From assembly GCA_038230095.1 (NCBI GenBank), contig JBBRNT010000001.1:112848-176847 (forward strand): a DNA stretch of 64,000 nt, in the 5' to 3' direction. Shown piece after piece: positions 16,936 through 58,193 of this stretch (position 1 is its first letter; every line of letters starts with the position of its first letter). Both the position numbers and the translations under genes were made by a program. Below the pieces are notes generated by a model. The model did no database searches. It saw only the letters and a program-made list of their open reading frames with translations, and was not told the origin of the DNA. The stretch comes from Candidatus Saccharimonadia bacterium (lineage in GTDB: Bacteria > Patescibacteriota > Saccharimonadia > UBA4664 > JBBRNT01).

Positions 16936-16983
16936 AGTATCTATTGTATAGGATTGCGACCAGATTGGCGTAATACCAAAAAA

Positions 16984-17004
16984 CCACCCGGCAGGGTGGT
17001 TTTG
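16984..17004. terminator. terminator hairpin downstream of rpsT
   Basis: CCACCC-GGCA-GGGTGG flanked by A/T runs on both strands. Confidence 0.6.
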
Positions 17005-17019
17005 TATCCGTAGGATGGA

Positions 17020-17388: not shown

Positions 17389-17598
17389 AGGTTTGAATGT
17401 TTGAATTTAGACTACTGGACTATACCTGATCGTCTGGGCTTTGTAAAGTGTCTCGGGCGCGGTTCGTAGACCGATAGGGGATTATCGGGTACAGTGATCG
17501 AGTATATTGCACGTTCACAATCTGTTTCGGTACAGCTATGTGGCTAGGGGTGACCGCTAGGTAGTTGTACCGAACCATGTAGGGAAAGGGGTGCTGTC

Positions 17599-41995: not shown

Positions 41996-44107
41996 ATGGA
42001 TGTGCAATTTGAAAATACCAAGTCCTACTCAGCACGGCGAGCACTGATGCTCCTCGTGCCTTTCTTGTTCTCTATCATTGCGATAGGTACGCCGCAAGCG
42101 GCCCACGCGGATGCTGCGCCGACCTCTCGCTATGTGCCGCTGACACCAGCGCGTATCTTGGATACGCGGGATGGTACAGGTACTGGCACGGTTGCGCCGG
42201 TACGGACAGACTCAGCTATAAGCCTGCAAGTGACGGGCCGTGGCGGCGTTCCAGCCAATGCCTCGGCGGTGGTCATGAATGTGACAATCGCCAATCCGAT
42301 TGGCTCTGGTTATGTCACAGTCTGGCCACATGGCGTGTCGCGCCCGGTAGTTTCGAGTGTCAACTATTCGGGCCCTCGAGATGTTCAGGGCAACGAAGTT
42401 ACAGTGTTGCTCGGTAACGATGGTCAAGTCGATCTCTACACCTTGGTCCAATCTGACATGGTGGCAGACGTCATGGGCTACTACGAGCCAATCAGCACAC
42501 CGGTGTCCTCTGGCCGTTTCATGCCACTTACCCCTGCTCGTATCTTGGATACGCGTAATGGTAACGGCGCTCCAGTAGCCAAGTTGCCCCAAGGTGGCAT
42601 GATTACCCTGCAAGTAACTGGCCGCGGTGGCGTTCCGGCCAGTGGTGTTTCGGCGGTGACCTTGAATATAACCGCAACCAATGCTGCCGAAGGCTACGTT
42701 ACGGTTTGGCCGGCAGGTCAGCCAATGCCTACAGCCTCTGTTCTAAACCCAACCGCTCAGCGCACGACGGTCCCTAATAAGGTGACGGTGCCCGTAAGCG
42801 GGGGCGGGCAGATCAACTTGTATACGCTCAATCCGACTGATTTGATTGCCGACGTGAGTGGCTACTACACGGATAGTAGTGCTAGTCCGTCCATGGATGG
42901 CTTATTCGTTGCGTTGACGCCCGCGCGGGTGCTCGATACCCGCAAAGTCAATCCGTTTCTTGCGCCTGGAGCTCAGGGTACAGCGACGCTGCGATTCGGC
43001 GGACTTGGTGGCGTTCCTACTACCAATGTCGCTGCAGTGTTGTTCAACCTGACGGGGACGCAGAGCCAGAGTGCTGGCTTCGTTACCGTCTATCCGGCTG
43101 GCCAGGCTCGGCCCGAAGCCTCGAACTTGAACCTGATAGGGCCTGGGGATACCAAGGCCAACGCGGTAATCGCGCCGGTGAGCTCCGAAAACGCCGGCGT
43201 CACAATGTTTACCATGCCCAATGTGGATCTGGTGGGGGATGTGAGCGGCTACTTCACCGGCAGCGCCACCGCGGTCGGCCCGCCACCAACAGGCTGCGGC
43301 TATACTGCTACCGTTGACAACGGTGGCCAAGGAAGCCAAGCCGAACTGGTATTGCACAACACTACGACCCAGATAGACGCGGTTTTGGTCACTGGCGTGA
43401 CTGCGTACGACTCGCAGCCATGGATTACTTATGACTGCCAGTACATGTGGTATACGACTTTCCCAAATGGGCTGAATACCGAGCCGCTCGAGAAGCTACG
43501 GTTCATTGCTACCGGCCAAGAAGTGGCGCCGCGCGCAGGCCCGGGCTACTCCTACGACTTTGTGGCTCGGGATAACAGCGAGGCCATGTTCTATATAGAG
43601 GGTAATGGTCTGGAGTGGCGGATTACTGAGTCTGCAATTCACTCGAACCCACTGGGCCGTACCATTACCCAAACTGCAAACGGCTTCAACCTGTACGATC
43701 TGACTGTGGGCCGGTATTCGAATGATGTTTGCTATTCGATTACCAAAGGGACGCCGCAAAAGCAATTGGAGTGTCGGGACATTACAACAAGCGTAGTAAC
43801 AACCCAGCTGGCGAGCTCCTCCAGCGACTATCAGGGGGCGCTTAGCCCCGATGGTCGGTATCTGGCATTCCTGCGCAGCAGCAACTCTGGTTCACGAGTA
43901 ATGTTGCTGGATCGCTCTACCAATACCATTTCTGACCCCTTTGGATCAACTTCACAGCACCCCACTTGGGATGCGGCAAGCCGGCTGGTGGCCAGTGTGT
44001 TTGTGAACGGTCAGCTGGACCTGTTTGCGAGAGATATTGCCACGGGCGCGGTGACTCAATTGACGAATACGCCAGCCCTCAACGAGTACCAAACGGTCAT
44101 GCCCTGA
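41996..44107 (+). CDS. secreted protein with three tandem about 115-aa repeats (LTPARILDTR...VTGRGGVP...DVSGYY) and C-terminal TolB/PD40-like beta-propeller repeats
   Basis: N-terminal signal peptide (LMLLVPFLFSIIAIGTPQAAHA). Three clearly alignable repeats. The C-terminus has SPDGRYLAF and similar PD40 motifs. AAAGGAG lies before the ATG. Confidence 0.6.
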   Translation: MDVQFENTKSYSARRALMLLVPFLFSIIAIGTPQAAHADAAPTSRYVPLTPARILDTRDGTGTGTVAPVRTDSAISLQVTGRGGVPANASAVVMNVTIANPIGSGYVTVWPHGVSRPVVSSVNYSGPRDVQGNEVTVLLGNDGQVDLYTLVQSDMVADVMGYYEPISTPVSSGRFMPLTPARILDTRNGNGAPVAKLPQGGMITLQVTGRGGVPASGVSAVTLNITATNAAEGYVTVWPAGQPMPTASVLNPTAQRTTVPNKVTVPVSGGGQINLYTLNPTDLIADVSGYYTDSSASPSMDGLFVALTPARVLDTRKVNPFLAPGAQGTATLRFGGLGGVPTTNVAAVLFNLTGTQSQSAGFVTVYPAGQARPEASNLNLIGPGDTKANAVIAPVSSENAGVTMFTMPNVDLVGDVSGYFTGSATAVGPPPTGCGYTATVDNGGQGSQAELVLHNTTTQIDAVLVTGVTAYDSQPWITYDCQYMWYTTFPNGLNTEPLEKLRFIATGQEVAPRAGPGYSYDFVARDNSEAMFYIEGNGLEWRITESAIHSNPLGRTITQTANGFNLYDLTVGRYSNDVCYSITKGTPQKQLECRDITTSVVTTQLASSSSDYQGALSPDGRYLAFLRSSNSGSRVMLLDRSTNTISDPFGSTSQHPTWDAASRLVASVFVNGQLDLFARDIATGAVTQLTNTPALNEYQTVMP

Positions 44108-44131: not shown

Positions 44132-45676
44132 CTACGCTGCCGGGGACTTTTCGTTGCCATTTCGGCGGTAGGCGTAGAACGCAAGGCAGGCTAGTCCTAG
44201 TAGCTGGGGCCAGATAGTCCATTCGCCTAGCCGAGAGTAGGGCGTGAGGGTGGTTTGTGGCTGGATGCGGGCACTGATCACATCTAGCCCGTCGATGGGG
44301 GAAGAGGCAATTAATTTGCCATTAGCATCCAGGACGTAGCTAGCACCTGCCCGCGCTGACTGGATAAATGGCCTGGCATTCGCGATAGCTATGAAACGAC
44401 TAAAGTGCTTTGATTGTTCGAAGTAGATTGGTGCATTGCTGAAAATACCCAGAGCGGCACTATTGGTAAGTACTTGTGCGCCACCACGAGTGAGCTTTTG
44501 GTAGAGGTCTGGTGCTATCACTCCAGAGCAAGCAAGGCTGCCAATTTCGGTATTTCCGGCAGAGGCAAATGGGTGTGGGGTAATTCTGGTGCCAGTAATT
44601 GTGCGGTATTTTTCGAAGTAATCGACTAGGTCTCTGAACCCCAGTCCAAGGGCCACCCACTTCACTACGTAGGGCAAGAACTCACCAGTAGGGACTAGGA
44701 AACTCTTAGGTTGTTCATAGCTGATATTGCCGGCGGAGTCTCTGACAACAATGATGTTTGACAGGGTATTTGCGGAATTGCTATCTTGGTCATCCAATAC
44801 GGTGCCATCGGTCCGGGCTAGAGCAGCTAAATTCTGGTCGCTAGTTGGCTGCTTGCCGTCGAAGAACCGGGAGTACTCTGTGAGGACGAGTAGCTGGGCG
44901 GGTTGCACAGACTTGCTTGATAGAAGTTGTGTAAGATTGGCCTGGTAATTGGTATCAGACTCACCAAGCTGCAGCACATTTACGGAGACTTGCCTTGTGT
45001 GCTGGAGTGGCCATACCCAGCCGAGCACGGAAATGGCAACCAATCCAGCCAGCATTAAAGTAGCAGTACGCCACTGTCGGTTCAGCGACATGTAGAGAGT
45101 AATATTGGCCATAACTACGAGTAGACTTAGACCAAATAAGCCAACAATCCTTGAGGCAGGCCCCAGCCAGGTGGTAGCTCCAGCCAATCCGAGCACCCCA
45201 AAATTCCAGTAACTGCCTAGGCTGGCACCCGGTCCAGCAGTGAAGATCGAGAAAAGCCAACTACGGGCGTATTCACAGAGCACCCATAAGACCGCAAAGG
45301 TGGATAGCCGGGCCAGGCCGGCGGGTAGTTTGCTCGCAATGTATTTGTACCCCAAGCCCAGTATCATGAACCCGCTGGATAAAAATAGACAGGCAAGCAG
45401 CCACACAATACCAATGAGACTCTGCACGACCCAGCCACTGGTATTACCCCAAGTAACTGGATTGGTATTGAGCATCCAGCTACAAGCCAGGCAACAGTAG
45501 ATAAGGCCAGTGACCCAAAACAATAGGATACTGCGCTTACCCTGGAATTTTTCTAAGAATATGAACAACGGAATAAGACAAAGTAACACAAGCCACTGGA
45601 AATGGGGGATACAGAATGCTGCTGTGGATAGGGTAAGCCACGCAGATAGGAGTAAAAATTGTTTGGTTCGATGCAT
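44132..45676 (-). CDS. apolipoprotein N-acyltransferase-like protein (polytopic N-terminus plus carbon-nitrogen hydrolase domain)
   Basis: 6-8 TM helices followed by a CN-hydrolase-like domain. Candidate catalytic Glu in LVLTEY and Cys in GSLACSGVI. Confidence 0.55.
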   Translation of the reverse strand: MHRTKQFLLLSAWLTLSTAAFCIPHFQWLVLLCLIPLFIFLEKFQGKRSILLFWVTGLIYCCLACSWMLNTNPVTWGNTSGWVVQSLIGIVWLLACLFLSSGFMILGLGYKYIASKLPAGLARLSTFAVLWVLCEYARSWLFSIFTAGPGASLGSYWNFGVLGLAGATTWLGPASRIVGLFGLSLLVVMANITLYMSLNRQWRTATLMLAGLVAISVLGWVWPLQHTRQVSVNVLQLGESDTNYQANLTQLLSSKSVQPAQLLVLTEYSRFFDGKQPTSDQNLAALARTDGTVLDDQDSNSANTLSNIIVVRDSAGNISYEQPKSFLVPTGEFLPYVVKWVALGLGFRDLVDYFEKYRTITGTRITPHPFASAGNTEIGSLACSGVIAPDLYQKLTRGGAQVLTNSAALGIFSNAPIYFEQSKHFSRFIAIANARPFIQSARAGASYVLDANGKLIASSPIDGLDVISARIQPQTTLTPYSRLGEWTIWPQLLGLACLAFYAYRRNGNEKSPAA

Positions 45677-45730
45677 TGTTTCCCACTCATAATGCTTTTG
45701 CTATAGTATAGTGTACAAGATGGATGTTAC

Positions 45731-46297
45731 ATGAAGCTGTCACGATACAAGCTTGGAGTCATAATAGTTCTCGTCGTAATCGCTGCTGTCGGTGGTGCGC
45801 TATTTTTTCGTTCAGTCGTCTTGAATGCTCAAAAGAAGGCGAACCAACGCCACGGTGTGCAGCCAACAAAGGCCGAGGAGGGCATTGCCGTCGTGGCAGC
45901 TTTGGTTGCTAAGGATAGCGCCTCGGCAGCGGAGCTGAAACAGGCCAAAACCGACTTGCTTAATCAGCTGGCCAAAGCTACAACCATTCCGGATAAAGTG
46001 GCAATATTGGATACGCTCACGGTTGTTTGCCAAAAGCAGAAGGATCTGGTCTGCGCTAACGAGTACCAAGTACAGGTTTTGCAACTGGACCCCTCCAACT
46101 ACGATAATCTAGTTTCTGCGGGGGAGGCTGCACAGGCTGCGGGCAAGTATGCCGACGCATTAGCTGATTTCCAGAAAGCATTAACGGCTCTTGATACAAA
46201 GTCGAAGAATTACTCATACATGAAAGACTACGTGGACGGCAAGATTACTGAGCTACTGGCGCTGATTGCAAAACCGGCGACTAAGGGCAAATCATGA
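45731..46297 (+). CDS. membrane-anchored TPR-like protein
   Basis: N-terminal TM helix and Ala/Leu-rich helical repeats. ATGA overlap with the downstream giant gene. Confidence 0.5.
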   Translation: MKLSRYKLGVIIVLVVIAAVGGALFFRSVVLNAQKKANQRHGVQPTKAEEGIAVVAALVAKDSASAAELKQAKTDLLNQLAKATTIPDKVAILDTLTVVCQKQKDLVCANEYQVQVLQLDPSNYDNLVSAGEAAQAAGKYADALADFQKALTALDTKSKNYSYMKDYVDGKITELLALIAKPATKGKS

Positions 46298-49200
46298 AGC
46301 GCCTACTCCTACTTATCCCAGTATTATTTGCTACCTTGGTCATGTCCGGGGCTGCACATGCGGCTGCCTGGAGCTTGACTGATACACTGCCAGACCCTGC
46401 ATCCAATGGCCCTGAGATTTACCTAGACATAGCCAAAAGCGGCTGCGGGATTAGGCTGGATGCCCCTATAAGCTATACCAAGGCCTATTATGCAAACGGT
46501 ACGGTAGACTTTAAAGTAAATATAATTGATGGCGACTATGGCGCGGACGGGGCATCGGTGGACTACGGCGGCTGGGGCGGCAATGTAAATCGCGATGCTG
46601 TCTACGATCTATACCCGCTAGACGCGAACGGGAACATTCAGGGAGGCAAGGCACCTGGTGGAGCTGCAAGCGCAGTAGCTGGTCGTACCAATGCTACGGG
46701 TGACGCTGTTTCGCGACACCTAGGCAATGAAATGCCCACTTCCGGCTTTGAGGTGAACTTGACGGCCGAAAACCGTCAACCAACCCAGCGGATTACTAGC
46801 CTAGGCTTATATGGCGTGCTAATTGTAGCCTACTGGTATAACAATAGTTTCTGCGGGCGCATCAATGGGTATAAGCTGCAGGCTATTGGTACTACTGGCG
46901 GCAAAGGTGGTGCTGGCAAATACGCATATATGGGCTATGTAGCCTCTTTTGATGATCCATTCCAGAACGGCACAGGAAGCTATCCGCAAGCTGTTGGCGC
47001 CATGCCTCTATCACTCAGTGGCAAGAAAACCATTGATTTCAAAAGTGGCGTACCATGCGACTTTGAGACGAATCCCGCCTATAACAACACGCTACATCTG
47101 CGATGGCAGGATGCAGATGCCGGAAGTAGGCCTGGGTCCAGTCCGGCGAACGCGGGAATTGGTTTCACTATTACCCAGTACCGAACTGATGCAGGCGGCA
47201 ACCTAGTGCAAGTCGCAGCATTTTCAATAACGGACCCAGCAGATAACTTTGCCCTTGGTGGTAATGGCGAATTCCGCGACTTGGCGTTTACTAGGGCTGG
47301 CGGCGGGACGTACACAGCGGCGTTATCCGGTTCGAATATTCCAGGATCAATTGATGTAACCGGAACTATCGTGGCCCAAAGCGGAGTACAGATAGCAATT
47401 CAGAATAATGATAAATTCGAGTGGAAATGGACCCAAGTTCTGGTTGATAATCATCTGCAGTTGTGGGCACCATTTGATACTATATTTGGCTTTATAAATT
47501 GTACTCCTGCGAGGAACGACTCCATTTGCAGCTGGTCAGGAGGCATACCCGGCAGCGTTCCGGCGGGGAGCACCTTTAACGCCGGTATAACCATGCAAAA
47601 CAGTGGCACTACCACCTGGACGCCTGGGCCTGCCGGCGTGGTAAATTCGTACCTCTTAGGTACAGCGCAGCCACACGATAATACGATTTGGGGGCCAAGT
47701 AGGTATGGGCTGCCATTTGCGGTGGGACCCGGCGGGTCCGTCACCTTCAACGCCACGTTTACCGCACCAACCGCACCAGGAGACTATCCGTTCGCGTTCC
47801 AGATGCTGCAAGAGGGGGTGGAGTGGTTTGGTGGGACCTGCTTTACTACGATAACTGTAAGTGCCATTAATAAAGCCAGCTGCTCAGTTATATTCACCGA
47901 TAGAGCCAGCTACGGCGCCGGTGACACTATAAATGCGGTGGTGCAGTTCTTTAACTCCGGCTCAAAGGACTGGTGGTCGGGCGCAAACTACCACATGGGC
48001 GAAATAGACGGTGTAGGATGGGTGCCGGGCGCCAGAGTGTGGATGCAGCCGAACGGGTATGGTAACCCCACGCCTGAGTGGGTCAGACCAGGACAGTACG
48101 CGACATTCAGCTTTGCAGTAACAGCACCGGCGACGCAAGGCACTTATCCGTTCTCCTGGCAGATGGTTCAAGACGGCGTGGAGTGGATTACCGGGGTGAA
48201 CCCAGTTTGTAGCCTAAATATCCCCGTGACGCAGCCATTCCAGTACACGCTCGATGAGTCCAGCTCCAGCGCTGTCTGGGGTGACCCTACATATCCTGTA
48301 GGCAATTTGGATCTGACCTCGGGCACCATTAATATGACATTCCTTATAAATCCACGGGCCGTGGCGCTGGCATTTGCTCGCACCGGTGACGCTTATAATC
48401 TAGCGCCCTACCTCTTCGGTGGGGGTGGCAGTGTGGCACAGTCTGGCACCTGGGGGCCAGGCCCTTGGAACGGTCAGCCTGGAATAGCACCGGGCGGGGG
48501 CGCCTCGTACTACGTACGCTACAATGTGCCGCGCACCACCCCAGATGGAACCGTCTTCTGTGTGTACTCGGGTATTACGCCGCACGCTTCGTTTGATGGC
48601 GGCCAGCTGCTCTCAAACATCCTTTGTTATACCATTGCGAACCCTCGGTATCCTTATCTGACCACGAGCCAGGGTGATGTACACGCTGGTGCTGCGCCAA
48701 CCTGTACGCTTCCTGGAAGTACGCCGAACAATATTAAGGGCGTGACCGTCCTGAACCAAGGCTCCGTTGGCCAGTTCATAGTGTCGGCTGGTGGGACTAT
48801 TACCGACTTCTCGTCAGGTGGAGTACAGGGGAGTAGTGGGCAGAGTCTACCCGGCTATGGGACCATCTGTAGGCCAGACCTAATAGCCCGGGCCCAGCAG
48901 TACCGCACTGACTACGGCTCTGTTGACCCCGGTGCGTCCTTTGCCCCAACTGCCTACGTACCCGGTACGCTAGCGAGCCGCCTGCTGTACCACGTGGGCC
49001 CGGTAACGCTACAGGCCGGTACCATCTCTGGACGCTATAGCCTAGTAGTTATTGGCGACCTTACCATCAATGGCAACTTGAGCTATGACGGTACACCCCG
49101 GGCGCTGGTGGACCTGCCTTCCCTGGGCATAATTGTGACCGGTAATGTATATATAAGCCCCGGAGTAACTACCATGGTCGGTGCAGTGTTTGCCAACGGC

Positions 49201-49452
49201 ACCATAGACACCTGTAGCCCTTACCAGGCAACGAATTGCAATAACTCCCTGTTTTTGGACGGCTCCATGTACGCCAAGAGCTTTAATTTCAAACGCACTG
49301 GCAACGGAATCCAGGGTGGAGTAGACCAGGGCTTTGCCGAGAATATCCATGGCTCAACCCGTCTGTACATAGCGCCACCACCGGGCTTCAAGGACCTAGC
49401 ACCGATCCAATCTCAGAGCCAAGCACCAAACGAAAAACCACCATCCTACTAG
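46294..49452 (+). CDS. large secreted surface protein (1052 aa) with two tandem FW/NBR1-like Ig domains and a Gly/Thr-rich beta-rich C-terminal region
   Basis: Signal peptide MKRLLLLIPVLFATLVMSGAAHA. Two segments with the four-Trp pattern (MQNSGTTTW...FTAPTAPGDYPFAFQMLQEGVEWFG, and FFNSGSKDWW...VTAPATQGTYPFSWQMVQDGVEWITG). C-terminus has GNVYISPGVTTMVGAVFANGTI beta-helix-like repeats. Confidence 0.6.
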   Translation: MKRLLLLIPVLFATLVMSGAAHAAAWSLTDTLPDPASNGPEIYLDIAKSGCGIRLDAPISYTKAYYANGTVDFKVNIIDGDYGADGASVDYGGWGGNVNRDAVYDLYPLDANGNIQGGKAPGGAASAVAGRTNATGDAVSRHLGNEMPTSGFEVNLTAENRQPTQRITSLGLYGVLIVAYWYNNSFCGRINGYKLQAIGTTGGKGGAGKYAYMGYVASFDDPFQNGTGSYPQAVGAMPLSLSGKKTIDFKSGVPCDFETNPAYNNTLHLRWQDADAGSRPGSSPANAGIGFTITQYRTDAGGNLVQVAAFSITDPADNFALGGNGEFRDLAFTRAGGGTYTAALSGSNIPGSIDVTGTIVAQSGVQIAIQNNDKFEWKWTQVLVDNHLQLWAPFDTIFGFINCTPARNDSICSWSGGIPGSVPAGSTFNAGITMQNSGTTTWTPGPAGVVNSYLLGTAQPHDNTIWGPSRYGLPFAVGPGGSVTFNATFTAPTAPGDYPFAFQMLQEGVEWFGGTCFTTITVSAINKASCSVIFTDRASYGAGDTINAVVQFFNSGSKDWWSGANYHMGEIDGVGWVPGARVWMQPNGYGNPTPEWVRPGQYATFSFAVTAPATQGTYPFSWQMVQDGVEWITGVNPVCSLNIPVTQPFQYTLDESSSSAVWGDPTYPVGNLDLTSGTINMTFLINPRAVALAFARTGDAYNLAPYLFGGGGSVAQSGTWGPGPWNGQPGIAPGGGASYYVRYNVPRTTPDGTVFCVYSGITPHASFDGGQLLSNILCYTIANPRYPYLTTSQGDVHAGAAPTCTLPGSTPNNIKGVTVLNQGSVGQFIVSAGGTITDFSSGGVQGSSGQSLPGYGTICRPDLIARAQQYRTDYGSVDPGASFAPTAYVPGTLASRLLYHVGPVTLQAGTISGRYSLVVIGDLTINGNLSYDGTPRALVDLPSLGIIVTGNVYISPGVTTMVGAVFANGTIDTCSPYQATNCNNSLFLDGSMYAKSFNFKRTGNGIQGGVDQGFAENIHGSTRLYIAPPPGFKDLAPIQSQSQAPNEKPPSY

Positions 49453-49489
49453 CACGGATGGTGCGGTAAAAAAAGCCGCTGATCCAGCG

Positions 49490-49518
49490 TAGACAAGCCA
49501 TAGTTGTTATGCTAATGT
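49490..49518 (+). promoter_or_regulatory. candidate promoter for pilM (TAGACA-17-TGCTAATGT)
   Basis: Extended -10 TGnTAATGT ends 7 nt before ATG 49526. Short or leaderless transcript. Confidence 0.35.
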
Positions 49519-49525
49519 CGAAGCA

Positions 49526-50563
49526 ATGGCATTATTTAATACAGACAATGACTACTTCGGTTTAGACATTGGCGAGACGGGTATCCGGCTGGTCCAGCTA
49601 CGCAAGTCGGCTGGTAAACCGGTGCTGGTGACGCTTGGGGATATACCCGTGCCGGGTAACTTGCTTATGAGCGATGCCCCGATCGACCAGGATAAGCTGT
49701 CCAGTATCATCCGCCAGCTAGTGAAGGATCTGGGTGTGTCGACAAATAGCGTGGCGCTTGGTCTGCCAGCCAATAAGGTCTATGCTGCCGTGATAACCAC
49801 CCCGAAACTGACCGAAGCCGAGCTGTCGAAGGCTATCCGCTTCCAGGCTGATCAGTACGTACCGGTGGCAATTGACCAGGTGAAGTTGGATTGGACGGTA
49901 CTAGGACCCGGCAAGACCGACAACGAGCTGGAAGTTCTACTAGTAGCGTGCCCCAATACTGTAGCCGACAAATACCTATCTATCGCCGAGAACGCGGGGC
50001 TAGACGTAATGTCTTTGGAGACAAACTCTATGGCGCTGTACCGGGCAGTGGTCCCTACTGGCAGTCCGGCAGTGGTGGTGATTGATATTGCCAATACCGA
50101 CACTGATCTGGCCATTGTCTACAATGATACCCCTCGCTTGTTGCGCTCTATTGCGGTGGGCGGAAATACATTCCTAAAGGTTGTGTCGCAAGGTCTGGGA
50201 CTTGATGAAGTGCAGGCAGACCAGTTCATTAAGAAATTTGGTCTGACGCAAACCAAGCTCGAAGGACAGGTCTACAAAGCCATTAAGCCCAGCATTGACC
50301 TCCTGATTGAAGAAGTGGGGAAGAGCATTAAGTTCTTTGCTACTCGCTACCCAGAGGTAAAAATTGAGAAGCTCGTGCTGACTGGTGGTAGCTCACAGAT
50401 GCTGGAGCTTCCGACCTATCTGGCGAATGCAACCAGGCTACCAGTTGAAATTGCTAACCCGTGGATTAATATAGGCTACCCAGCAAGCATGCACGAGCGA
50501 CTGCTGGGCCTGGCCCACACCTATGGTGTGGCAGCTGGCCTTGCCCAAAGGATGTACCTGTAA
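49526..50563 (+). CDS. pilM: type IV pilus assembly protein PilM (actin-like ATPase fold)
   Basis: YFGLDIGETGIRLVQL N-terminus, FtsA/PilM fold length, and gene order pilMNO. Confidence 0.85.
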   Translation: MALFNTDNDYFGLDIGETGIRLVQLRKSAGKPVLVTLGDIPVPGNLLMSDAPIDQDKLSSIIRQLVKDLGVSTNSVALGLPANKVYAAVITTPKLTEAELSKAIRFQADQYVPVAIDQVKLDWTVLGPGKTDNELEVLLVACPNTVADKYLSIAENAGLDVMSLETNSMALYRAVVPTGSPAVVVIDIANTDTDLAIVYNDTPRLLRSIAVGGNTFLKVVSQGLGLDEVQADQFIKKFGLTQTKLEGQVYKAIKPSIDLLIEEVGKSIKFFATRYPEVKIEKLVLTGGSSQMLELPTYLANATRLPVEIANPWINIGYPASMHERLLGLAHTYGVAAGLAQRMYL

Positions 50564-51159
50564 TGGCTGTAAGCATTAATCTGCTACCCGATGTTCGTCA
50601 GGCCCGAATTCGGGATGCGGAACGACGCCAGCTACTCAGCATAGTGCTAGTGGGCACACTCGTACTATGTGGCCTGGTGGCCGGGGGACTGTTTGCCGTA
50701 ACCACCGCGCAACAGAGCCAAATTAAGGGGCTATCGGCGAGTATTACTGACAAGAAGGCCCAACTGACCAAGGACCCCGACCTAATTAAGATTCTGACTG
50801 CGCAGCAACAAGTGAGCAGCCTAGACCGGCTGCTGACCAATAAGCGCTATGTCACCAAAGTATTCAATATTTTGACTGAGATCTCGCCTACAGCTAAGGA
50901 ACTCATGCTGACTAATCTAGAAATTGACGACAAGAACCTAATGAAGGTGACTGTAACGGGCCGAGACTTCTTGGTGGCCGATCGATTCGTTAAGGCACTA
51001 GTGGCTAGCAACGTCAAGATTGGTAGCAAGGCGGCCGAGGGTAACCTACCAGACTTTACCAATGTGCAGCTATCGACGGTGGCAACGGATACTGGCAGTC
51101 GGACAATATTTAGTATAACGATGCAATTAGCTGATGGAGTGTATGATGCCAAGCGCTAA
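50563..51159 (+). CDS. pilN: type IV pilus assembly protein PilN
   Basis: INLLP motif at the N-terminus, single TM, periplasmic coiled coil. TAATG overlap with pilM. Confidence 0.8.
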   Translation: MAVSINLLPDVRQARIRDAERRQLLSIVLVGTLVLCGLVAGGLFAVTTAQQSQIKGLSASITDKKAQLTKDPDLIKILTAQQQVSSLDRLLTNKRYVTKVFNILTEISPTAKELMLTNLEIDDKNLMKVTVTGRDFLVADRFVKALVASNVKIGSKAAEGNLPDFTNVQLSTVATDTGSRTIFSITMQLADGVYDAKR

Positions 51160-51757
51160 ACAACAAAAAGCCGAGCTTAGCTTCAATAACTACCTTATGC
51201 TGGTGGTCTTGGTTTGCATACTAGCTGTGGGGGCGACGGTATTTGCCGCAAACACTATGGTACAGAGCTACTTGCGCAATCAGAAACTGATTACCGGCAA
51301 GACGGCAGCCGACAAGCAGCTAAGCGAGAACATTGATTCTTTCGGTAAGCTAAAACAGCAGTATGGTGGACTCGGCGCTACTGCCGACTACCTAAACCTA
51401 GCGCTGCCTTCTGTGCCCAACTATCCAGGCTTGGTTTCGACGGTGGCCAATATGGCCGGTATTAGCGGGGTTAAGCTGAAGTCCATTGCACCCGCAGAGA
51501 CTACGGACTCTGCCAATGCTATAGCAGCGGCACCTTCGGCAAATGCACCTGTCACCTATCCTGTGAACGTGATCGTGGACGGTAACTATGCGGCTGTTCA
51601 GACCTTTCTGAAGAATATGGAGCTATCAGCCAGGCAGTTCAAGATTACCACCTTGAGTATAACCGGCCCAAGCGCTGCCCAGACACTGACTATAAGCGTA
51701 CTGGCTTATCACCAGACAGCTGCGACAATCACCGAAAAGACGGAGGCAGTTAAATGA
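51134..51757 (+). CDS. pilO: type IV pilus assembly protein PilO-like
   Basis: Single TM plus extracytoplasmic domain, at the PilO position. The true start is probably ATG 51143 or 51146 after GGAG. Confidence 0.6.
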   Translation: MECMMPSAKQQKAELSFNNYLMLVVLVCILAVGATVFAANTMVQSYLRNQKLITGKTAADKQLSENIDSFGKLKQQYGGLGATADYLNLALPSVPNYPGLVSTVANMAGISGVKLKSIAPAETTDSANAIAAAPSANAPVTYPVNVIVDGNYAAVQTFLKNMELSARQFKITTLSITGPSAAQTLTISVLAYHQTAATITEKTEAVK

Positions 51758-52017
51758 AACGCAAAGACGTCACCTATCTAATAATTACGGTGGTCATTCT
51801 AGCTGCGACGGGTATTATGGCCTACTTCTTCCTGTTCCCCCAGAAGTCGACGGGCACTGGTGCTAAATCTAGCTATGAAGTCATAACCCCGATCGACGCT
51901 ACGCTTACTGGTGATAAGCTCAATCGTATCCTTGATTCCACGAAGCTGAAAGACTTCAGCGTTCCAGTAGACCTAAAGGGTCTTGGCAATACGACGCCGT
52001 TTGGACCGTTGCAATAA
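51754..52017 (+). CDS. small membrane-anchored protein in pilus operon (87 aa)
   Basis: ATGA overlap with pilO. One TM (YLIITVVILAATGIMAYFFLF). Confidence 0.45.
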   Translation: MKRKDVTYLIITVVILAATGIMAYFFLFPQKSTGTGAKSSYEVITPIDATLTGDKLNRILDSTKLKDFSVPVDLKGLGNTTPFGPLQ

Positions 52018-52035
52018 CCGACAGGGGAGGGCCAG

Positions 52036-53826
52036 ATGCTATCGGTTGAGAGCCAGCAACGAATTGAGAAACTGCTACTGTCGAACAATATTATTTCCAA
52101 GCCTGACCTAGAGAAGGCCCGTCTAGATGCCATTGCTTCGAACAAGCCGCTCTTGACCTACCTGGCTGAGAAGCAGCTAGTGGCGGACGAAGAGCTGACT
52201 AAGGTCTCGGCCCAGGCCTCTACAGTGCCGTATGTGAACCTGACTGGCGTGTCTGTAGTGAAGGATATACTAGATGCACTCCCTAAGACGAGCGCTGAGA
52301 CCTATATGGCCGTGCCGTTTGGACAGCTCCAAGGCCGCTTAGCAGTAGCCATGCTCGACCCCACCAATGTGCAGGCCATAGACTTCCTCGCACGCAAGAG
52401 CGGTCGACAGATTGCCTCGTTCATGGCCTCTCGGGCTAGCATTGAGCACGTTCTGAGCCAGTATCGTAGCGATGTGGGCGCAGACGTGAGCGCTGCCATC
52501 CAGAATGCCGATAATGCAGTGGTGCCAACGGCTTCACAAAATCGGCAAGCGGCGGCAGATACCAAGGAGCTTCAGAACCTGGTTCAGGATGCTCCAATCA
52601 CCAGGGCACTGAATGCCATCCTCGACTACGCTGCACAGTCTCGAGCGTCGGATATTCATATTGAGCCGCGCGAGAATGAGCTAGCTATCCGTTACCGAAT
52701 CGACGGGATCCTTCAAGAATCCATGAAGCTTCCGAAGTCGGTTGAACCAGCGCTAATTAGCCGAATAAAGATTTTATCCAATTTGAAGATTGATGAGCAC
52801 CGCATCCCCCAAGACGGGCAGTTCCAGATACATTCCGGCGGTAAAGACATAGACCTGCGTATTGCTATTGCGCCCGTGGTGCACGGAGAGCAGGTGGTCA
52901 TACGGTTGCTCGACAAGAGCTCAACGGTATTGACGCTGGAGTCGCTGGGGTTCAAGGGCCGGGCATTTCGACTTATTAAGGAGGGTATCCACCGGCCACA
53001 CGGTATGACGCTGTCGACGGGTCCGACTGGGTCGGGTAAGTCAACCACACTGTACGCGGTGATCTCAGCTATTAACGATGTGGCGATCAATATTGTGACA
53101 CTGGAAGACCCGGTAGAGTACAAGATGGATGGTATCAACCAAATTCAGGTCAATAACGATGTGGGTCTGACATTTGCCTCCGGCCTGCGATCTATCCTAC
53201 GTCAAGACCCTAACGTGGTGATGGTAGGGGAGATCCGAGATAAGGAGACGGCCGATCTAGCCGTGCAAGCGGCACTGACGGGTCATACCGTGCTATCGAC
53301 GCTGCACACCAACTCCGCTGCCGGTGTCTTGCCCCGTATGCTCGACATGCAGATTGAGCCATTTCTGATAGCTTCTACTATTAACACCGTGATTGGTCAG
53401 CGACTAGTGCGTAAGCTTGGTGATGCAAAGGATGTGGAAACCTTTGAGTCCAACCAGCTCGAGACGGACTCTATTAACCGAGTGGTGGGGGACCTACTGC
53501 CCAAGACCAAGGCCGATGTGGCGCGAGTGGCGGAGGACCTAGGATACGATAACTTGCCCCTTGGTGGTCAAAACGCTTATACTTTATATAGACCAAAGAC
53601 ACGGGCCGACGGTAGCAAGAACTACAAGGGACGTATCGGGGTGTATGAGGTGTTTGCAATGACCGAAGCTATGGAAAAATTACTGCTCGGGCGTGCCACC
53701 ACTTCGGAGGTACAGACCCAGGCTCAGAAAGATGGAATGATAACGATGAAACAGGATGGTTACCTGAAGGCACTAGTGGGAATGACTACGCTCGAAGAAG
53801 TTGAGCGAGTGGCGGCGGACGCATAA
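52036..53826 (+). CDS. pilB: type IV pilus extension ATPase PilB (GspE family)
   Basis: N-terminal GSPII domain, Walker A GPTGSGKSTTL, Asp and His boxes, and tetracysteine-like region. Confidence 0.92.
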   Translation: MLSVESQQRIEKLLLSNNIISKPDLEKARLDAIASNKPLLTYLAEKQLVADEELTKVSAQASTVPYVNLTGVSVVKDILDALPKTSAETYMAVPFGQLQGRLAVAMLDPTNVQAIDFLARKSGRQIASFMASRASIEHVLSQYRSDVGADVSAAIQNADNAVVPTASQNRQAAADTKELQNLVQDAPITRALNAILDYAAQSRASDIHIEPRENELAIRYRIDGILQESMKLPKSVEPALISRIKILSNLKIDEHRIPQDGQFQIHSGGKDIDLRIAIAPVVHGEQVVIRLLDKSSTVLTLESLGFKGRAFRLIKEGIHRPHGMTLSTGPTGSGKSTTLYAVISAINDVAINIVTLEDPVEYKMDGINQIQVNNDVGLTFASGLRSILRQDPNVVMVGEIRDKETADLAVQAALTGHTVLSTLHTNSAAGVLPRMLDMQIEPFLIASTINTVIGQRLVRKLGDAKDVETFESNQLETDSINRVVGDLLPKTKADVARVAEDLGYDNLPLGGQNAYTLYRPKTRADGSKNYKGRIGVYEVFAMTEAMEKLLLGRATTSEVQTQAQKDGMITMKQDGYLKALVGMTTLEEVERVAADA

Positions 53827-54896
53827 TGGAAGCTGTAGTACCCAAAATTGAGCTTATGCTCGAAGCGGTTCTTAAGCTGGACGCCTCAGACTTGCATTTG
53901 CAAGCGGGCGTACCACCTATGCTCCGTGTTGACGGCGCCTTGCGCCCCATGGCTGAGGCGGCTGTGCTGGATGCCGATGCAATAGAGAAGCTTATCTTCT
54001 CTATCCTAGATGATGAACAGAAAGATGTGCTCATTAAGGATAAGGAAGTGGACTTCTCGTTTGCCTTTGGCGACTTGGGCCGGTTCCGGGTAAATGCCTT
54101 CCATGAGCGTGGTAATCTAGCGGCCGCGTTGCGCCTGATCCCAACCAAGATCCGGACCATGCAAGAGCTGGGTCTACCCAAGGTAATGGACAAGTTCTGT
54201 GACTTCCCGCGTGGTTTGGTGCTGGTAACTGGGCCGACGGGTTCTGGTAAGTCGACTACTCTGGCGGCCATATTGAACCAGATTAACACAGATAAGTCGT
54301 TGCATATTCTGACGATTGAGGACCCTATTGAGTACGCCCACGAGTCCAAGAAGTCTATCGTAGTACAGCGAGAGATCCACTATGACACCTACAGCTTCGG
54401 TGCAGCGCTGCGCTCCAGCCTGCGCCAAGACCCTGATGTGGTACTAATCGGTGAGATGCGCGACCTAGAGACGATTGCGGCAGCGATTACGATTGCCGAG
54501 ACGGGGCACCTAGTACTGGCAACCCTGCACACCAACTCCGCAGCGCAGTCCATAGACCGTATGATTGATGTCTTCCCGCCCCACCAACAGCAGCAGATCC
54601 GGATCCAGCTGGCAGGTATACTCCAGGGCATTTGTGCGCAACGCCTGGTGCCTACCATTGGTGGTGGCCGTATGGCTATTTCAGAGATCCTAATGGTGAA
54701 TAACGCGGTGCGTAATATTATCCGCGAGGGTAAAACCCACCAGCTGGACGCTGTGATCCAAACTGGTGCCGAGGAAGGCATGCAGTCTATGGATAAGACC
54801 CTGGTGCAGTTTATCCAGCAGGGCAAGATAACCTATGACGAAGCCAAGAACTATGCTGTTGATCTTAAAGAACTGGATAGGATGATGCGCGGATGA
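53826..54896 (+). CDS. pilT: type IV pilus retraction ATPase PilT
   Basis: LVLVTGPTGSGKSTTLAAILNQIN and the PilT-length (356 aa) AAA+ core. TAATGG overlap with pilB. Confidence 0.92.
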   Translation: MEAVVPKIELMLEAVLKLDASDLHLQAGVPPMLRVDGALRPMAEAAVLDADAIEKLIFSILDDEQKDVLIKDKEVDFSFAFGDLGRFRVNAFHERGNLAAALRLIPTKIRTMQELGLPKVMDKFCDFPRGLVLVTGPTGSGKSTTLAAILNQINTDKSLHILTIEDPIEYAHESKKSIVVQREIHYDTYSFGAALRSSLRQDPDVVLIGEMRDLETIAAAITIAETGHLVLATLHTNSAAQSIDRMIDVFPPHQQQQIRIQLAGILQGICAQRLVPTIGGGRMAISEILMVNNAVRNIIREGKTHQLDAVIQTGAEEGMQSMDKTLVQFIQQGKITYDEAKNYAVDLKELDRMMRG

Positions 54897-54903
54897 GTAC
54901 GCC

Positions 54904-56115
54904 ATGTTGACATACGTCTACAGCGCTAAGAATGCTGAAGGGGTCTTGATTAAGGCCGAGGTACAGGCCGAGAACGAGCAATCGGCGGCGAAGCTGCTTA
55001 TGTCCCAGGCGCTGTTTCCGATTACCATCGAAAGCAAAGAAGCTGCTAATAAACTGCCCATCAACCTACCGTTTCTGAACCAAGTACCAAACAAAGAGCG
55101 AGTTATTTTTACCCGACAACTCTCCACGTTGATTAACGCAGGCCTACCACTTCTGCAGTCTATCCGAACGGTGAGCGACCAGGTGGTGAATAAGAAGCTG
55201 AAAGAAGTGCTATCGAAGGTGATTGCCGCGGTCGAGGGTGGGGCTAGTCTGTCGGCCGCGTTTGCGCAGCACCCCGCGGTGTTTAACCAGATCTACGTGA
55301 GCCTAGTAGCGGCTGGTGAGACCTCGGGTACGCTAGACAAGTCGCTGGCTCGGCTGGCCGACCAGCAGGAGAAAGACGCCGCGATTGCGTCCAAGATCCG
55401 TGGCGCCCTGATCTACCCAGTGATCGTGCTATTCGTGATTGTTGCGGTGGTGGTATTTATGCTATCTACACTGCTCCCACAGGTGTCGCAGCTCTATAAA
55501 GATCTGAAAAAAACCCTGCCCTTAGTCACCCGTATTCTGGTATCTATTTCCGACTTTGTTGGACACTTTTGGTGGCTCGTGGCCATACTGCTGGGTGGGC
55601 TAGTGTATGCGCTGACGCGCTACGTGAAGTCCACGCAAGGACGAGAGGTCTGGGACAACTTGAAACTACACCTGCCTATATTTGGAGTAATATTTCAGAA
55701 AGTGTACATGGCACGGTTTGCGCGAACTACGTCGGTATTGCTTATGAGCGGTATCCCTATGCTGGAAACCCTGGAGATTGTGAAAAAGGCCGTGAGCAAC
55801 GTCATTGTGGGCAACGCTATTGAGCGCGCCATGGGCAAGGTGAAGGCAGGTAAATCACTTTCAAGTAGCTTAGAGAATGAGGATAGCTTTATTCCCCTAG
55901 TGCCTCAGATGACCAAGATTGGTGAAGAGTCTGGCGGCATAGATGACATGTTGGGCCGGGTGGCGGGCTTCTACGAGAATGAGGTGGATGAGGCGGTAAA
56001 GAACCTCTCTACCATCATGGAGCCCATCCTAATGGTAGTTCTGGGTGTAGTGGTTGGCGGCGTGATAGTGGCAGTTCTGCTGCCGGTGTACTCACTCGTT
56101 GGGCAAGGCCTCTAG
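54904..56115 (+). CDS. pilC: type IV pilus platform protein PilC (GspF family)
   Basis: Two GspF repeats each followed by TM helices. Confidence 0.9.
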   Translation: MLTYVYSAKNAEGVLIKAEVQAENEQSAAKLLMSQALFPITIESKEAANKLPINLPFLNQVPNKERVIFTRQLSTLINAGLPLLQSIRTVSDQVVNKKLKEVLSKVIAAVEGGASLSAAFAQHPAVFNQIYVSLVAAGETSGTLDKSLARLADQQEKDAAIASKIRGALIYPVIVLFVIVAVVVFMLSTLLPQVSQLYKDLKKTLPLVTRILVSISDFVGHFWWLVAILLGGLVYALTRYVKSTQGREVWDNLKLHLPIFGVIFQKVYMARFARTTSVLLMSGIPMLETLEIVKKAVSNVIVGNAIERAMGKVKAGKSLSSSLENEDSFIPLVPQMTKIGEESGGIDDMLGRVAGFYENEVDEAVKNLSTIMEPILMVVLGVVVGGVIVAVLLPVYSLVGQGL

Positions 56116-56193
56116 CGTAAGTATTGACGTTGGTAAGCATAACTATTAAGGTATTTGTAAGCAATAATTTGCAATAAGGAAGGTGAGATTCGA

Positions 56194-56661
56194 ATGCTAA
56201 AGAAACTAATGAAAGAGAATAAGGGTTTTACCCTTATTGAAATCGTCCTGGTCCTGGCCATTGCCGGACTGATCCTTGTCGTGGTGTTCCTGGCCGTCGG
56301 TGGTGCACAGCGTGCTCGCCGAGATACGCAACGTAAGGAAGATGTAGCTAAGGTAGTGGCCCAAATTGAGAGCTATGCGGGTAACAACAATGGCTGTTAT
56401 CCTGGCTCAGCCGCCGCCACTGGCTGTGCTTCGGCAGTTACGTTTGCCGCGTTTGCCGCAAGTAACTACATTACCGGTATTACGCTGACAGATCCCCTGG
56501 CCGGCGTTAACTACACCTATGTGGCTGCAGTTACACCTACAGCAGCTACGCCAATGGGTCTGGTCTATGTCTATGGTACTGACTGTGCCGGTGTTGCAGG
56601 ACGCACGTACAATCTTCGAGCAAACCTCGAAGCTGGTAGTGTCTGCCGCGACAACAAATAG
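56194..56661 (+). CDS. pilA: type IVa major pilin
   Basis: Class III signal MLKKLMKENKG/FTLIEIVLVLAIAGL with Phe+1 and Glu+5. Short globular domain with a Cys pair. Confidence 0.85.
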   Translation: MLKKLMKENKGFTLIEIVLVLAIAGLILVVVFLAVGGAQRARRDTQRKEDVAKVVAQIESYAGNNNGCYPGSAAATGCASAVTFAAFAASNYITGITLTDPLAGVNYTYVAAVTPTAATPMGLVYVYGTDCAGVAGRTYNLRANLEAGSVCRDNK

Positions 56662-56673
56662 CTAAGACAGCTT

Positions 56674-56701
56674 AAAAAAAGACCCGTAAGGGTCTTTTTT
56701 T
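56674..56701 (+). terminator. Rho-independent terminator after major pilin gene
   Basis: A7-GACCC-GTAA-GGGTC-T7 perfect hairpin. Confidence 0.85.
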
Positions 56702-56724
56702 ATTGGCTCTGGTATAATCTGGTT

Positions 56725-57531
56725 ATGGTTTTTCTTCTGGGTGTATTGGGTCTTATCTTCGGTAGCTTCTCAGGGGCAACGGCTTGGCGTATTCATAAAC
56801 GTATGGAGGCAGAGGACGCCGGCAAGCAGATAGATGAGAAGTACTCCGTAAGCCGGGGGCGTTCGTTGTGTGAGTCCTGCGGCCATGAGCTGGCAGCGCT
56901 GGACCTGGTGCCGCTACTAAGCTGGCTGGTCCTGCGGGGTCGGTGCCGCTACTGCCGGACCCGGCTGTCGTGGGAGTATCCGCTAATTGAGCTGGTGATG
57001 GCGGGGCTATTTGTTGTGTCATACCTGGTACTTGCGCCCACAAGCCTCAGCCAGTGGCTGTACTTTGCCTACTGGCTCTATCTGGTAACTAGTTTGTTGA
57101 TCCTGGCGGTATCGGACCTGAAATGGATGCTGCTGCCGGACGTGGTGCTGCTACCCGCACTGGCCCTGGCGACTGCCCTGGCTCTGGCGCAGCTGCTAGC
57201 GGGTGGATCAGCGGGCATGCTCCTTGCCGGGCTGGTGGCGGGTGGTGCGTTTCTAGCCCTGTCTGTCCTGTCTGGTGGGCGGGGGATGGGGATGGGGGAC
57301 GTGAAGCTGGCGGCGCTCATGGGGGTGGTACTGGGCCCGCTACACACAGTGATAGCTATGCTAATTGGATTTAACAGTGCCGCGGTGGTCAGTCTGGGAC
57401 TCATTGCACTCCATCGCAAACGGGCCAAAGACCACATACCGTTTGGGCCGTTTCTTATAGCCGGGCTGGTAATTGCCCTGCTCTGGGGTGCCCCCATTAG
57501 CACCTGGTACCTCCGGGTGGCCGGACTATAG
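56725..57531 (+). CDS. pilD: prepilin peptidase (A24 family) PilD
   Basis: Cytoplasmic zinc motif CESCGHEL...CRYCRTRL, catalytic Asp regions, 7-8 TM. TGGTATAAT lies 6 nt upstream of the ATG. Confidence 0.88.
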   Translation: MVFLLGVLGLIFGSFSGATAWRIHKRMEAEDAGKQIDEKYSVSRGRSLCESCGHELAALDLVPLLSWLVLRGRCRYCRTRLSWEYPLIELVMAGLFVVSYLVLAPTSLSQWLYFAYWLYLVTSLLILAVSDLKWMLLPDVVLLPALALATALALAQLLAGGSAGMLLAGLVAGGAFLALSVLSGGRGMGMGDVKLAALMGVVLGPLHTVIAMLIGFNSAAVVSLGLIALHRKRAKDHIPFGPFLIAGLVIALLWGAPISTWYLRVAGL

Positions 57532-57566
57532 CTGCGCAGCATAAGCACCATGGTATAATTTGAGCA

Positions 57567-58193
57567 ATGGCGCGTAATCAATCTCAAGCTGGATTTACCC
57601 TGATCGAACTCGTTCTAGCCCTGACTATCTCGGCGGCGCTTATTCCGATTGTCTTAAACGGCCAGCGAGAAATACGCTCGCGGGCACAGTTCTCCGATGG
57701 CGTGGAGCGGCTGCGAAACGACTTGGTGAATATTAAGAACGAAGCCAATACAACTGTAAGTACCCGCCAGATTGCTCCTGGCACTGACAGCCGCTACGCT
57801 GTCGCGGGCAAGGTGGTCATACTAGATAATACGGGTAGTAGCGGTGCATTGCGCCTGACTATTCGTACGTTGCGGTTTGATGAGTCGGTAAGCCCGCTAC
57901 AACTCAGCTTTGACCCAGATCCGACTGCCACTACCACGCAGGATATACCCTGGGGAGTACGGATTGATCCTGCTGTACCGGTGCCACTGCCGCAGATTGT
58001 AGTGTACTTGCGTAACGATGATACTGGGCATTTGCAGACGTATTTCCCCGCTAGCATAGTTGCTACCACTACCTATGCTAGCTATGTGCAGGCCGGGGTG
58101 GCTAAGACAATAAACTTGATTGATCCCGATAACCACAAGGGTACAGTGGTAGTAGATCCTATTTTTGGCAACGTAACGAGGACAATCCAATGA
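57567..58193 (+). CDS. minor pilin / pseudopilin (prepilin-type N-terminal domain)
   Basis: MARNQSQAG/FTLIELVLALTIS. TGGTATAAT lies 7 nt upstream of the ATG. Confidence 0.7.
   Translation: MARNQSQAGFTLIELVLALTISAALIPIVLNGQREIRSRAQFSDGVERLRNDLVNIKNEANTTVSTRQIAPGTDSRYAVAGKVVILDNTGSSGALRLTIRTLRFDESVSPLQLSFDPDPTATTTQDIPWGVRIDPAVPVPLPQIVVYLRNDDTGHLQTYFPASIVATTTYASYVQAGVAKTINLIDPDNHKGTVVVDPIFGNVTRTIQ

Follow-up and report, generated by a model that had tools for sequence, protein, structure and literature searches.

Gene organization upstream of pilM

The 64,000-nucleotide (nt) stretch of DNA analysed here, referred to below as the window, comes from a Candidatus Saccharimonadia bacterium (GenBank assembly GCA_038230095.1, contig JBBRNT010000001.1) and carries, directly upstream of a type IV pilus (T4P) locus, a two-gene cassette that encodes a 188-residue membrane-anchored partner and a large protein of 1052 residues (Table 1). 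Both open reading frames (ORFs) were read in the sequence as a preliminary description of this DNA had them, together with the ATGA at 46294-46297 in which the two genes overlap and the 73-nt gap (49453-49525) that separates the large gene from pilM (start 49526). We found that the large protein belongs to a family whose members share a C-terminal module of ~315 residues (the handle) and differ in the regions ahead of it (the heads). Our preferred reading, to which we give about an even chance, is that of a modular host-recognition adhesin linked to the pilus locus and equipped with a dedicated chaperone or tether, for which a location at the pilus tip is no more than a possibility.

The pilus locus of the window is of the T4P-1 type, and its 13-gene layout from pilM to the last pilin gene is that of T4P locus one in Nanosynbacter lyticus TM7x (PMC11623550) and also that of SEML1_0104-0116 in Southlakia epibionticum, where it is flanked by ychF and a tyrosine recombinase gene (PMC10633639). 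The relatives of the window pilM were all from metagenome-assembled genomes of Saccharibacteria or Saccharimonadia.

Linkage of the large gene to pilM

Word-indexed searches with the full large protein, its C-terminal 362 residues, or an alignment of the module returned almost only NBR1 proteins, or very few matches, and an exhaustive phmmer search with the large protein gave 4114 matches, almost all of them through its NBR1 region. Exceptions among the latter were P0020, which combines one NBR1 domain with the C-terminal region up to the last residues, EKPPxY, and P0132, which shares the N-terminal domain as well as a single NBR1 domain and the C-terminal region. Since the NBR1 region dominated these searches, family members were recovered from pilM loci: 39 were fetched for synteny, position was assessed in the 31 with a PilM at least 39% identical, and about 20 kb per locus was scanned with a hidden Markov model (HMM) of the module built from alignment A1.

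In all 31 loci, an ORF of 400-1260 residues on the same strand as pilM ends 36-274 nt upstream of it, and the module HMM matches this ORF and, tandem copies apart, nothing else in the locus. According to both tblastn and the HMM, these ORFs share with the window protein only the C-terminal ~315 residues. As a check on having selected the loci through pilM, we inspected the contexts of seven proteins found through the module itself, and all seven (P0020, P0132, P0159, P0160, P0162, P0163, and P0008) occupy the same pre-pilM slot. Whether a giant gene always stands upstream of pilM in relatives had been raised as a question in the preliminary description, and for the 31 environmental Saccharimonadia loci and the seven module-retrieved proteins the answer is yes. 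Moreover, the adjacency persists where the flank has changed, in that the cassette still adjoins pilM in L044 and L046, which have an altered upstream flank without ychF, and in the window and L041, where extra genes lie between ychF and pilM.

The module is present in one copy in the window and in two tandem copies in 8 of the 31 loci. Separately, we observed that the whole cassette of partner and large gene is duplicated in tandem upstream of pilM in L006, L027, L031, L041, L043, and L046, with further duplications in L003, L004, L009, L015, and L030, and that the heads often differ between copies. A split cassette and a fused-type gene occur together in L046, a locus in which pilT and pilC are also each called as two genes (15522-17752), possibly through frameshifts, pseudogenes, or assembly errors. 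The source of P0159 is labelled Candidatus Nanoarchaeia archaeon, and yet its contig (L042; GCA_035481015.1, DATIHE010000023.1) has a bacterial pilM-N-O-B-T-C order in the Saccharimonadia arrangement; this contig or its bin is probably misassigned.

The conserved C-terminal module

The module profile aligns with residues ~737-1050 of the window protein at 230.7 bits (E = 3.8e-69) and corresponds to no family in Pfam or NCBIfam. Invariant in alignment A1 are Cys974, Cys982, Gly990, and Glu1016, and the module displays rung-like motifs (GR.T..V.G.LTI, PNLG.IV.GD..I, G.I.TC, and L.V.G.L.A...F.R), with a tail motif PAE...PPPGF and then a terminal E..P.[FY]. Among 48 family members, the tail has PP within the last 45 residues in 43 and E..P within the last nine in 37, and the final residue is Phe or Tyr in 33.

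An AlphaFold2 model of residues 640-1052, made from an alignment of eight sequences, was poor overall, with a mean predicted local distance difference test (pLDDT) score of 48. Here, a core at ~862-1002, of moderate to high confidence (block pLDDT 57-92), consists of stacked β-strands with a helix in front, and the tail is mostly below 50, apart from one 10-residue block at 56. We take this core to be probably a β-solenoid as modelled, and the β-helix-like character previously suggested for the C-terminal region appears plausible from the rung-like repeats and the modelled solenoid taken together. The fold matches of the core are ice-binding proteins, ComZ, and tapirin, although the best of them in a Foldseek search of the PDB, an ice-binding-fold protein, is not significant (E = 0.42). 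The matches of the DUF3494 ice-binding fold (PDB IDs: 3wp9, 7bwx, and 6bg8) are likewise not significant in Foldseek, and ice binding would not be expected here; membership in the DUF3494 family was rejected, as it was neither matched by the window protein at E<=0.1 nor among the families reported for the 43 relatives at E<=1e-3. ComZ of Thermus thermophilus (PDB ID: 6qvi) is a tip-located competence pilin with an inserted β-solenoid, and the modelled module bears a loose resemblance to it. The ComZ solenoid is itself closest to ice-binding proteins (PMC6561018).

These folds bear on one alternative, in which the large protein would be a secreted enzyme or toxin that acts on the host envelope through a lyase- or hydrolase-like solenoid, its heads targeting host cell-wall glycans. 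Consistent with this, bacterial NBR1 domains co-occur among our homology matches with SpoIID-type amidases, M10 peptidases, and RHS toxins. However, the best fold matches are non-enzymatic (ice-binding and ComZ type) and not of the pectate-lyase kind, a catalytic family is found in none of the 43 members, and the invariant residues (Cys, Gly, Pro, and one Glu) form no obvious catalytic set. We regard this as the least probable of the readings considered, with a slight chance of being correct.

Signal peptide and tandem FW domains of the large protein

The N-terminus of the large protein, MKRLLLLIPVLFATLVMSGAAHA followed by AAW after the predicted cleavage site, is a classical Sec signal peptide, and it holds the sole hydrophobic 19-residue stretch of the protein. 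This agrees with the secretion proposed earlier and with a protein that is not cytoplasmic, as do the two invariant cysteines of the module. A type IV pilin or minor pilin, including one that is ComZ-like, was rejected from the type I signal peptide (cleaved between AHA and A) and the lack of an N_methyl match. Neither a lipobox nor a C-terminal hydrophobic segment is present in the 1052 residues, and a search for an LPXTG-like motif found none, in line with the earlier impression that sortase or wall-anchor motifs are missing; a sortase-anchored protein or a lipoprotein was rejected on these three counts.

Pfam family N_BRCA1_IG (PF16158) matches the large protein in two stretches, the best at 421-522 (E = 7.1e-12), and the score of 46.3 bits exceeds Pfam's own cutoff of 28. 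The assignment to the four-tryptophan (FW) or NBR1 type is hence sound, and of the earlier proposal of two tandem FW modules at residues 520-720, the tandem pair holds and the range does not, the real span being ~412-645. Modules 1 and 2 have 43 identical positions in their mutual alignment, including ...F.AP...G.YPF.[FW]QM.Q.GVEW. The four-tryptophan pattern is present in module 1 as Trp414, Trp442, Trp466, and Trp511, and module 2 retains ...YPFSWQM.QDGVEW. Judging from the sequence, each would adopt an immunoglobulin (Ig)-like β-sandwich. FW domains are known from bacteria (PMC9582228). The FW domain of eukaryotic NBR1 binds autophagy cargo in the cytosol, whereas those of the window would be parts of an extracellular surface protein, as one of many kinds of head domain.

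Beyond N_BRCA1_IG, the large protein has no accepted match in Pfam, NCBIfam, or the PDB sequences, and PDB sequence searches with the whole protein and with the module profile gave chance-level matches only. In the head region, we noticed a weak Pfam match to Invasin_D3, and its AlphaFold2 model (pLDDT 31.6) was unusable. Glycine makes up 12-18% of the protein throughout, bearing out the Gly-rich character described before.

Exchange of the heads

Clustering of the regions ahead of the module in the 48 members gave 16 groups unrelated to one another. NBR1 is found at E<=1e-3 in only 2 of the 43 full-length members scanned with Pfam, and the head domains of other relatives include B_lectin, NPCBM_assoc, DUF11, DUF7507, CarboxypepD_reg, and BetaGal_ABD2. 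The FW modules noted in the preliminary description are real, but it is the C-terminal ~315 residues, and not these, that are conserved.

Comparison with the closest relative, L040, gave identities of 82% for PilM, 84% for PilB, 87% for PilT, 73% for the major pilin, 48% for PilN, and 50% for PilO, against 49% for the C-terminal module and 20% for the partner, and no significant similarity for the head. The head type of the window recurs, however, in the more distant L002, L005, L027, L029, L031, and P0132 (28% identity with the latter over residues 4-523), and is not found in L040 or P0020. Since this head type occurs in distant genomes and not in L040, head exchange explains the pattern better than simple divergence does. 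Taken together, the sequences point to heads that have been swapped among at least 16 unrelated types, with the handle alone kept.

The membrane-anchored partner

The 188-residue partner has one N-terminal transmembrane (TM) helix (residues ~8-26), followed by an all-α, weakly TPR-like domain. Its best TPR score, for TPR_2 (E = 8.7e-4), is sub-threshold at 19.7 bits versus a cutoff of 27. In the earlier account of it as an N-terminally anchored TPR-like protein, the anchor is therefore clear and the TPR call weak.

In the relatives, the ORF directly upstream of each large gene always encodes a single-pass membrane protein and often overlaps the large gene. Three forms were distinguished: a coherent TM+TPR family, for which the initial clustering gave seven copies from five loci and of which one member, the L006 partner, passes TPR_7 (28.9 versus 27.9); short TM-only proteins; and proteins with a TM helix plus a domain of ~300 residues that gives recurrent sub-threshold matches to SurA_N_3. 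The last form is separate in L025 and L028, while in L009, L010, L012, L015, and P0008 a TM helix and SurA_N-like segment are fused to the N-terminus of the large protein. This split-or-fused pattern argues for physical cooperation between the partner and the large protein. Moreover, the 4-nt overlap of the two genes, seen in the window and in L040, suggests that the pair may be translationally coupled.

The window partner shares its position, size, and TM topology with the partners of relatives. In sequence, hhalign aligned it with the TM+TPR family (A5) at 66% probability (E = 5.5e-5) with 87 columns in register, whereas HMMER gave an E of 0.35, and BLAST found no match between it and the L040 partner.

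A tentative likeness to PpiD and YfgM may be drawn. In Escherichia coli, PpiD (TM+SurA_N) and YfgM (TM+TPR) are membrane-anchored periplasmic chaperones associated with the Sec translocon, and the cassette partners similarly combine a TM helix with a SurA_N-like or a TPR-like domain. Differences exist all the same: the SurA_N_3 matches in the cassettes are below the Pfam cutoff, the window partner has no SurA_N match and a sub-threshold TPR one, and each cassette partner serves a single neighbouring gene, to whose product it is sometimes fused.

Promoters, gene neighbourhood, and feature coordinates

A promoter-like site precedes the partner gene (Table 1). A sigma-70 scan of the 73-nt gap before pilM found no -35/-10 pair, and a plus-strand terminator is likewise lacking there. 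This negative scan is superseded by phylogenetic footprinting. Of 35 Saccharimonadia loci (the window, L001-L031, L035, L040, and L041), 33 have kept an extended -10 element, TGnTAnnnT, mostly as TTATGCTAAnAT or TTATGGTAnAGT, the end of which lies 5-10 nt (mode 7) ahead of the pilM ATG. The promoter of its own that the preliminary description had placed in the gap is, with this conservation, very likely for pilM, as is an mRNA that is leaderless or nearly so and without a Shine-Dalgarno sequence, both as read from sequence; read-through from the cassette is possible. The gap also contains a 5-bp GC-rich hairpin (CGCTG ATC CAGCG, 49477-49489) behind a run of seven A, which resembles a terminator on the minus strand only; it has no T tract on the plus strand, and no minus-strand gene converges on it.

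Table 1. Coordinates of the cassette, its encoded domains, and adjoining features in the window.
Feature	Position (nt)	Strand	Remarks
Promoter-like site TTCCCA-16-TATAGT, TG in front	45680-45707	+	Consensus scan only; upstream of partner gene
188-residue partner gene	45731-46297	+	ORF
1052-residue large gene	46294-49452	+	ORF
Sec (type I) signal peptide	46294-46362	+	Read from sequence; predicted cleavage after AHA
N-terminal head region, residues ~24-411	46363-47526	+	β-rich; one of at least 16 interchangeable head types
Two tandem NBR1/FW Ig-like domains, residues ~412-523 and ~527-645	47527-48228	+	PF16158
Linker/middle, residues ~646-736	48229-48501	+	Poorly conserved; 24% local identity to L040; low pLDDT
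Conserved C-terminal module, residues ~737-1052	48502-49449	+	Alignment A1; family-defining
Probable right-handed β-solenoid core, residues ~862-1002	48877-49299	+	
Proline-rich C-terminal tail, end ...NEKPPSY	49300-49449	+	No confident model
Extended -10 element TGCTAATGT	49510-49518	+	Ends 7 nt before pilM ATG
T4P-1-type locus	49526-60368	+	pilM, pilN, pilO, 87-residue ORF, pilB, pilT, pilC, ...
T4P-1-type locus, after pilC		+	155-residue major pilin, pilD, four further pilin-like genes (Pfam)

Upstream of the cassette, Pfam and NCBIfam identify an lnt homologue (minus strand), a secreted protein of 703 residues, and ychF (minus strand). The Lnt homologue (44132-45676) has LNT_N and CN_hydrolase domains, is divergent from the adjoining cassette, and is absent in L040; it scores 92.7 bits, below the NCBIfam equivalog cutoff of 132.9, and such an enzyme is unexpected in a bacterium thought to be without an outer membrane. 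The 703-residue protein (41996-44107) comprises three repeats of ~130 residues, each opening with Y/F.PL.PARILDTR.G.G and without a Pfam family, and a TolB/PD40-like C-terminus; because its gene is absent from L040, it is an apparent insertion between ychF and the cassette. At the other end, directly after the last pilin gene, is a XerC-type tyrosine recombinase gene (60370-61284, minus strand) that is syntenic with SEML1_0117, and the order S18, EF-P, TlyA, ychF ... pilM ... xerC is kept throughout the class.

Between pilO and pilB lies an ORF of 87 residues (51754-52017) with one TM helix. In the inspected gene tables of L040, L042, L044, and L046, a counterpart of 77-89 residues takes the equal place, and by position it matches SEML1_0107, a gene with an essential score in S. 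epibionticum. The ORF appears to encode a T4P component that is conserved but has yet to be named. The remaining window genes are housekeeping ones (PolA, PNPase, RNase J, FtsK, RecA, DnaG, and MurB), and neither a tRNA nor an Rfam element was found in the window.

Accessory status of the cassette

Only 12 nt separate the end of ychF from pilM in S. epibionticum ML1, and no cassette is found there, nor does the structural annotation table of this species list an ice-binding-like solenoid or an NBR1 protein. The T4P1 genes of S. epibionticum are nonetheless essential (PMC10633639). Because of this, we regard the cassette as an accessory of the T4P-1 locus in particular Saccharimonadia lineages rather than as a core pilus component, and it is probably not needed for pilus assembly itself.

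This absence also weighs on a second alternative, namely that the large protein is a structural or assembly accessory of T4P-1 in a cell that lacks an outer membrane, such as a collar or guide through the wall or S-layer with a PilP-, PilQ-, or TsaP-like role and a module in contact with PilN or PilO. Several features would fit: the gene lies directly 5' of pilMNO, in a cluster that in diderms is followed by pilP and pilQ; the module diverges at the PilN/PilO rate (49% versus 48-50% in L040); and there is no terminator before pilM. On the other hand, hypervariable, exchangeable heads and tandem duplicates are unexpected for a machine part, S. epibionticum has a functional and essential T4P1 without the protein, and there is no similarity to the secretin, PilP, or TsaP families. 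We therefore consider this alternative quite improbable.

Comparison with known pilus-associated adhesins

The preliminary description had named PilY1 or PilC as a functional analogue. Like these, the window protein is a large, Sec-exported, non-pilin protein of a T4P locus and belongs to a family that has paralogous copies and pairs a C-terminal domain that is conserved with ligand-binding N-terminal domains that vary. The PilY1 C-terminal domain, however, is a β-propeller (PF05567), whereas the window protein has no such match and a β-solenoid in its model. Moreover, PilY1 genes, which encode type IVa pilus tip adhesins in Pseudomonas, Neisseria, and Myxococcus, are grouped with those for the minor pilins and are required for piliation, while the window gene precedes pilM, some 8-10 kb away from the minor pilins, and the cassette is dispensable in at least one lineage. 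With no Pfam or NCBIfam match, a solenoid instead of a propeller, and a location apart from the minor pilins, membership in the PilY1/PilC family was rejected, and the likeness is functional, by analogy only.

Tapirins of Caldicellulosiruptor provide another comparison, being adhesins encoded next to a T4P locus, though without a sequence relationship to the window protein. They bind cellulose and their genes are downstream of the pilus genes; neither a partner gene nor head swapping is known among them. In published work on Saccharibacteria T4P, the operon has been treated from pilM onwards, and the large minor pilins PilX1 and PilX2 have been proposed as tip adhesins. The pre-pilM gene is not mentioned in the searchable literature on these pili, and the papers open to search do not describe the pre-pilM module family.

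Proposed role and its alternatives

In the reading that we prefer, the 1052-residue product is exported by Sec and its heads would be displayed outside the cell. These heads, here the ~390-residue β-rich domain and the two FW domains, would recognise differing surface ligands of the bacterial host, since NBR1, lectin, and CARDB/DUF11-like domains typically bind glycan or cell wall. The constant ~315-residue handle would couple the protein to an invariant symbiont structure, for which the T4P-1 apparatus or fibre seems the likeliest target because of the strict linkage to pilM. At the Sec exit, the partner may act as a dedicated chaperone, a membrane tether, or both for this large β-rich protein, and host specificity would change by head swapping, with a function of the PilY1 or tapirin type by analogy.

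A number of points weigh against this reading. Pilus placement and host binding are both predictions from sequence. The minor pilins, usual partners of tip adhesins, are encoded at the opposite end of the locus, ~8-10 kb from the cassette, and hhalign detected no similarity of the module to PilX-like minor pilins, whether from distant loci or from the window itself (the 329-residue pilin). The fused clades keep an N-terminal TM anchor, which favours the cell surface over the fibre, and the link between the window partner and the partner family is weak. So is the structural model, with its low mean pLDDT, its eight-sequence alignment, and its lack of a significant Foldseek match. Furthermore, the S18, EF-P, TlyA, ychF, and pilM region is strongly syntenic in the class, and part of the cassette-pilM adjacency could be inherited gene order instead of functional coupling. 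With a separate conserved promoter for pilM, co-regulation of cassette and pilus genes is not a given. The lack of a cassette at this position in S. epibionticum, whose T4P1 is essential, also counts against the reading.

Several of these points are accommodated by the main rival, an envelope-anchored surface adhesin or coat protein outside the pilus, with the linkage to pilM reflecting co-function or inherited synteny instead of physical association. Here, the protein would be held either by the partner or through binding of the module and tail to the wall or S-layer of the symbiont itself, and the variable head, displayed on the cell body, would serve adhesion at close contact once the pilus has retracted. 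Surface-layer and wall-bound proteins usually join a conserved anchor to an exposed part that varies, and fused forms with an N-terminal cytoplasmic tail and TM anchor, a partner that is a membrane protein, the separate pilM promoter, and a cassette dispensable for T4P1 in S. epibionticum all accord with such a location. Several non-pilus adhesins at the host interface have in fact been proposed from transposon sequencing (PMC10633639). Yet the module matches no known wall-binding domain (SLH, LysM, or sortase signal), its adjacency tracks pilM even where the ychF flank has been replaced, and an N-terminal anchor would put the conserved module distal, which is unusual for an anchoring domain. 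We hold this alternative to be possible, if on balance doubtful. For the adhesin, tip, or host-binding protein envisaged in the preliminary description, a simple tip protein does not suit the fused clades with their TM anchor, and a host-binding surface protein is the safer designation.

A more specific proposal takes the C-terminal solenoid and tail as a docking adaptor that would load interchangeable heads onto the T4P-1 pilus or its base, with the partner as a dedicated loading chaperone and the cassette as a horizontally exchangeable determinant of host choice. This we offer tentatively, as something rather unlikely to hold in full.

Implications for host recognition

For the recognition of bacterial hosts by ultrasmall Patescibacteria, and for attachment to them, work in cultured oral strains has implicated type IV pili and unidentified adhesins (PMC11623550, PMC10633639). 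The interest of the present family, which is defined by computation, rests more on the C-terminal module and head swapping than on the FW domains, and the module profile together with the terminal E..P.[FY] tail provides signatures for metagenome searches. Absence of the cassette from S. epibionticum, the sole host-associated cultured strain checked, may reflect its loss during adaptation to mammalian niches. In environmental Saccharimonadia, where it is fixed beside pilM, the cassette represents a concrete candidate for a determinant of host range.

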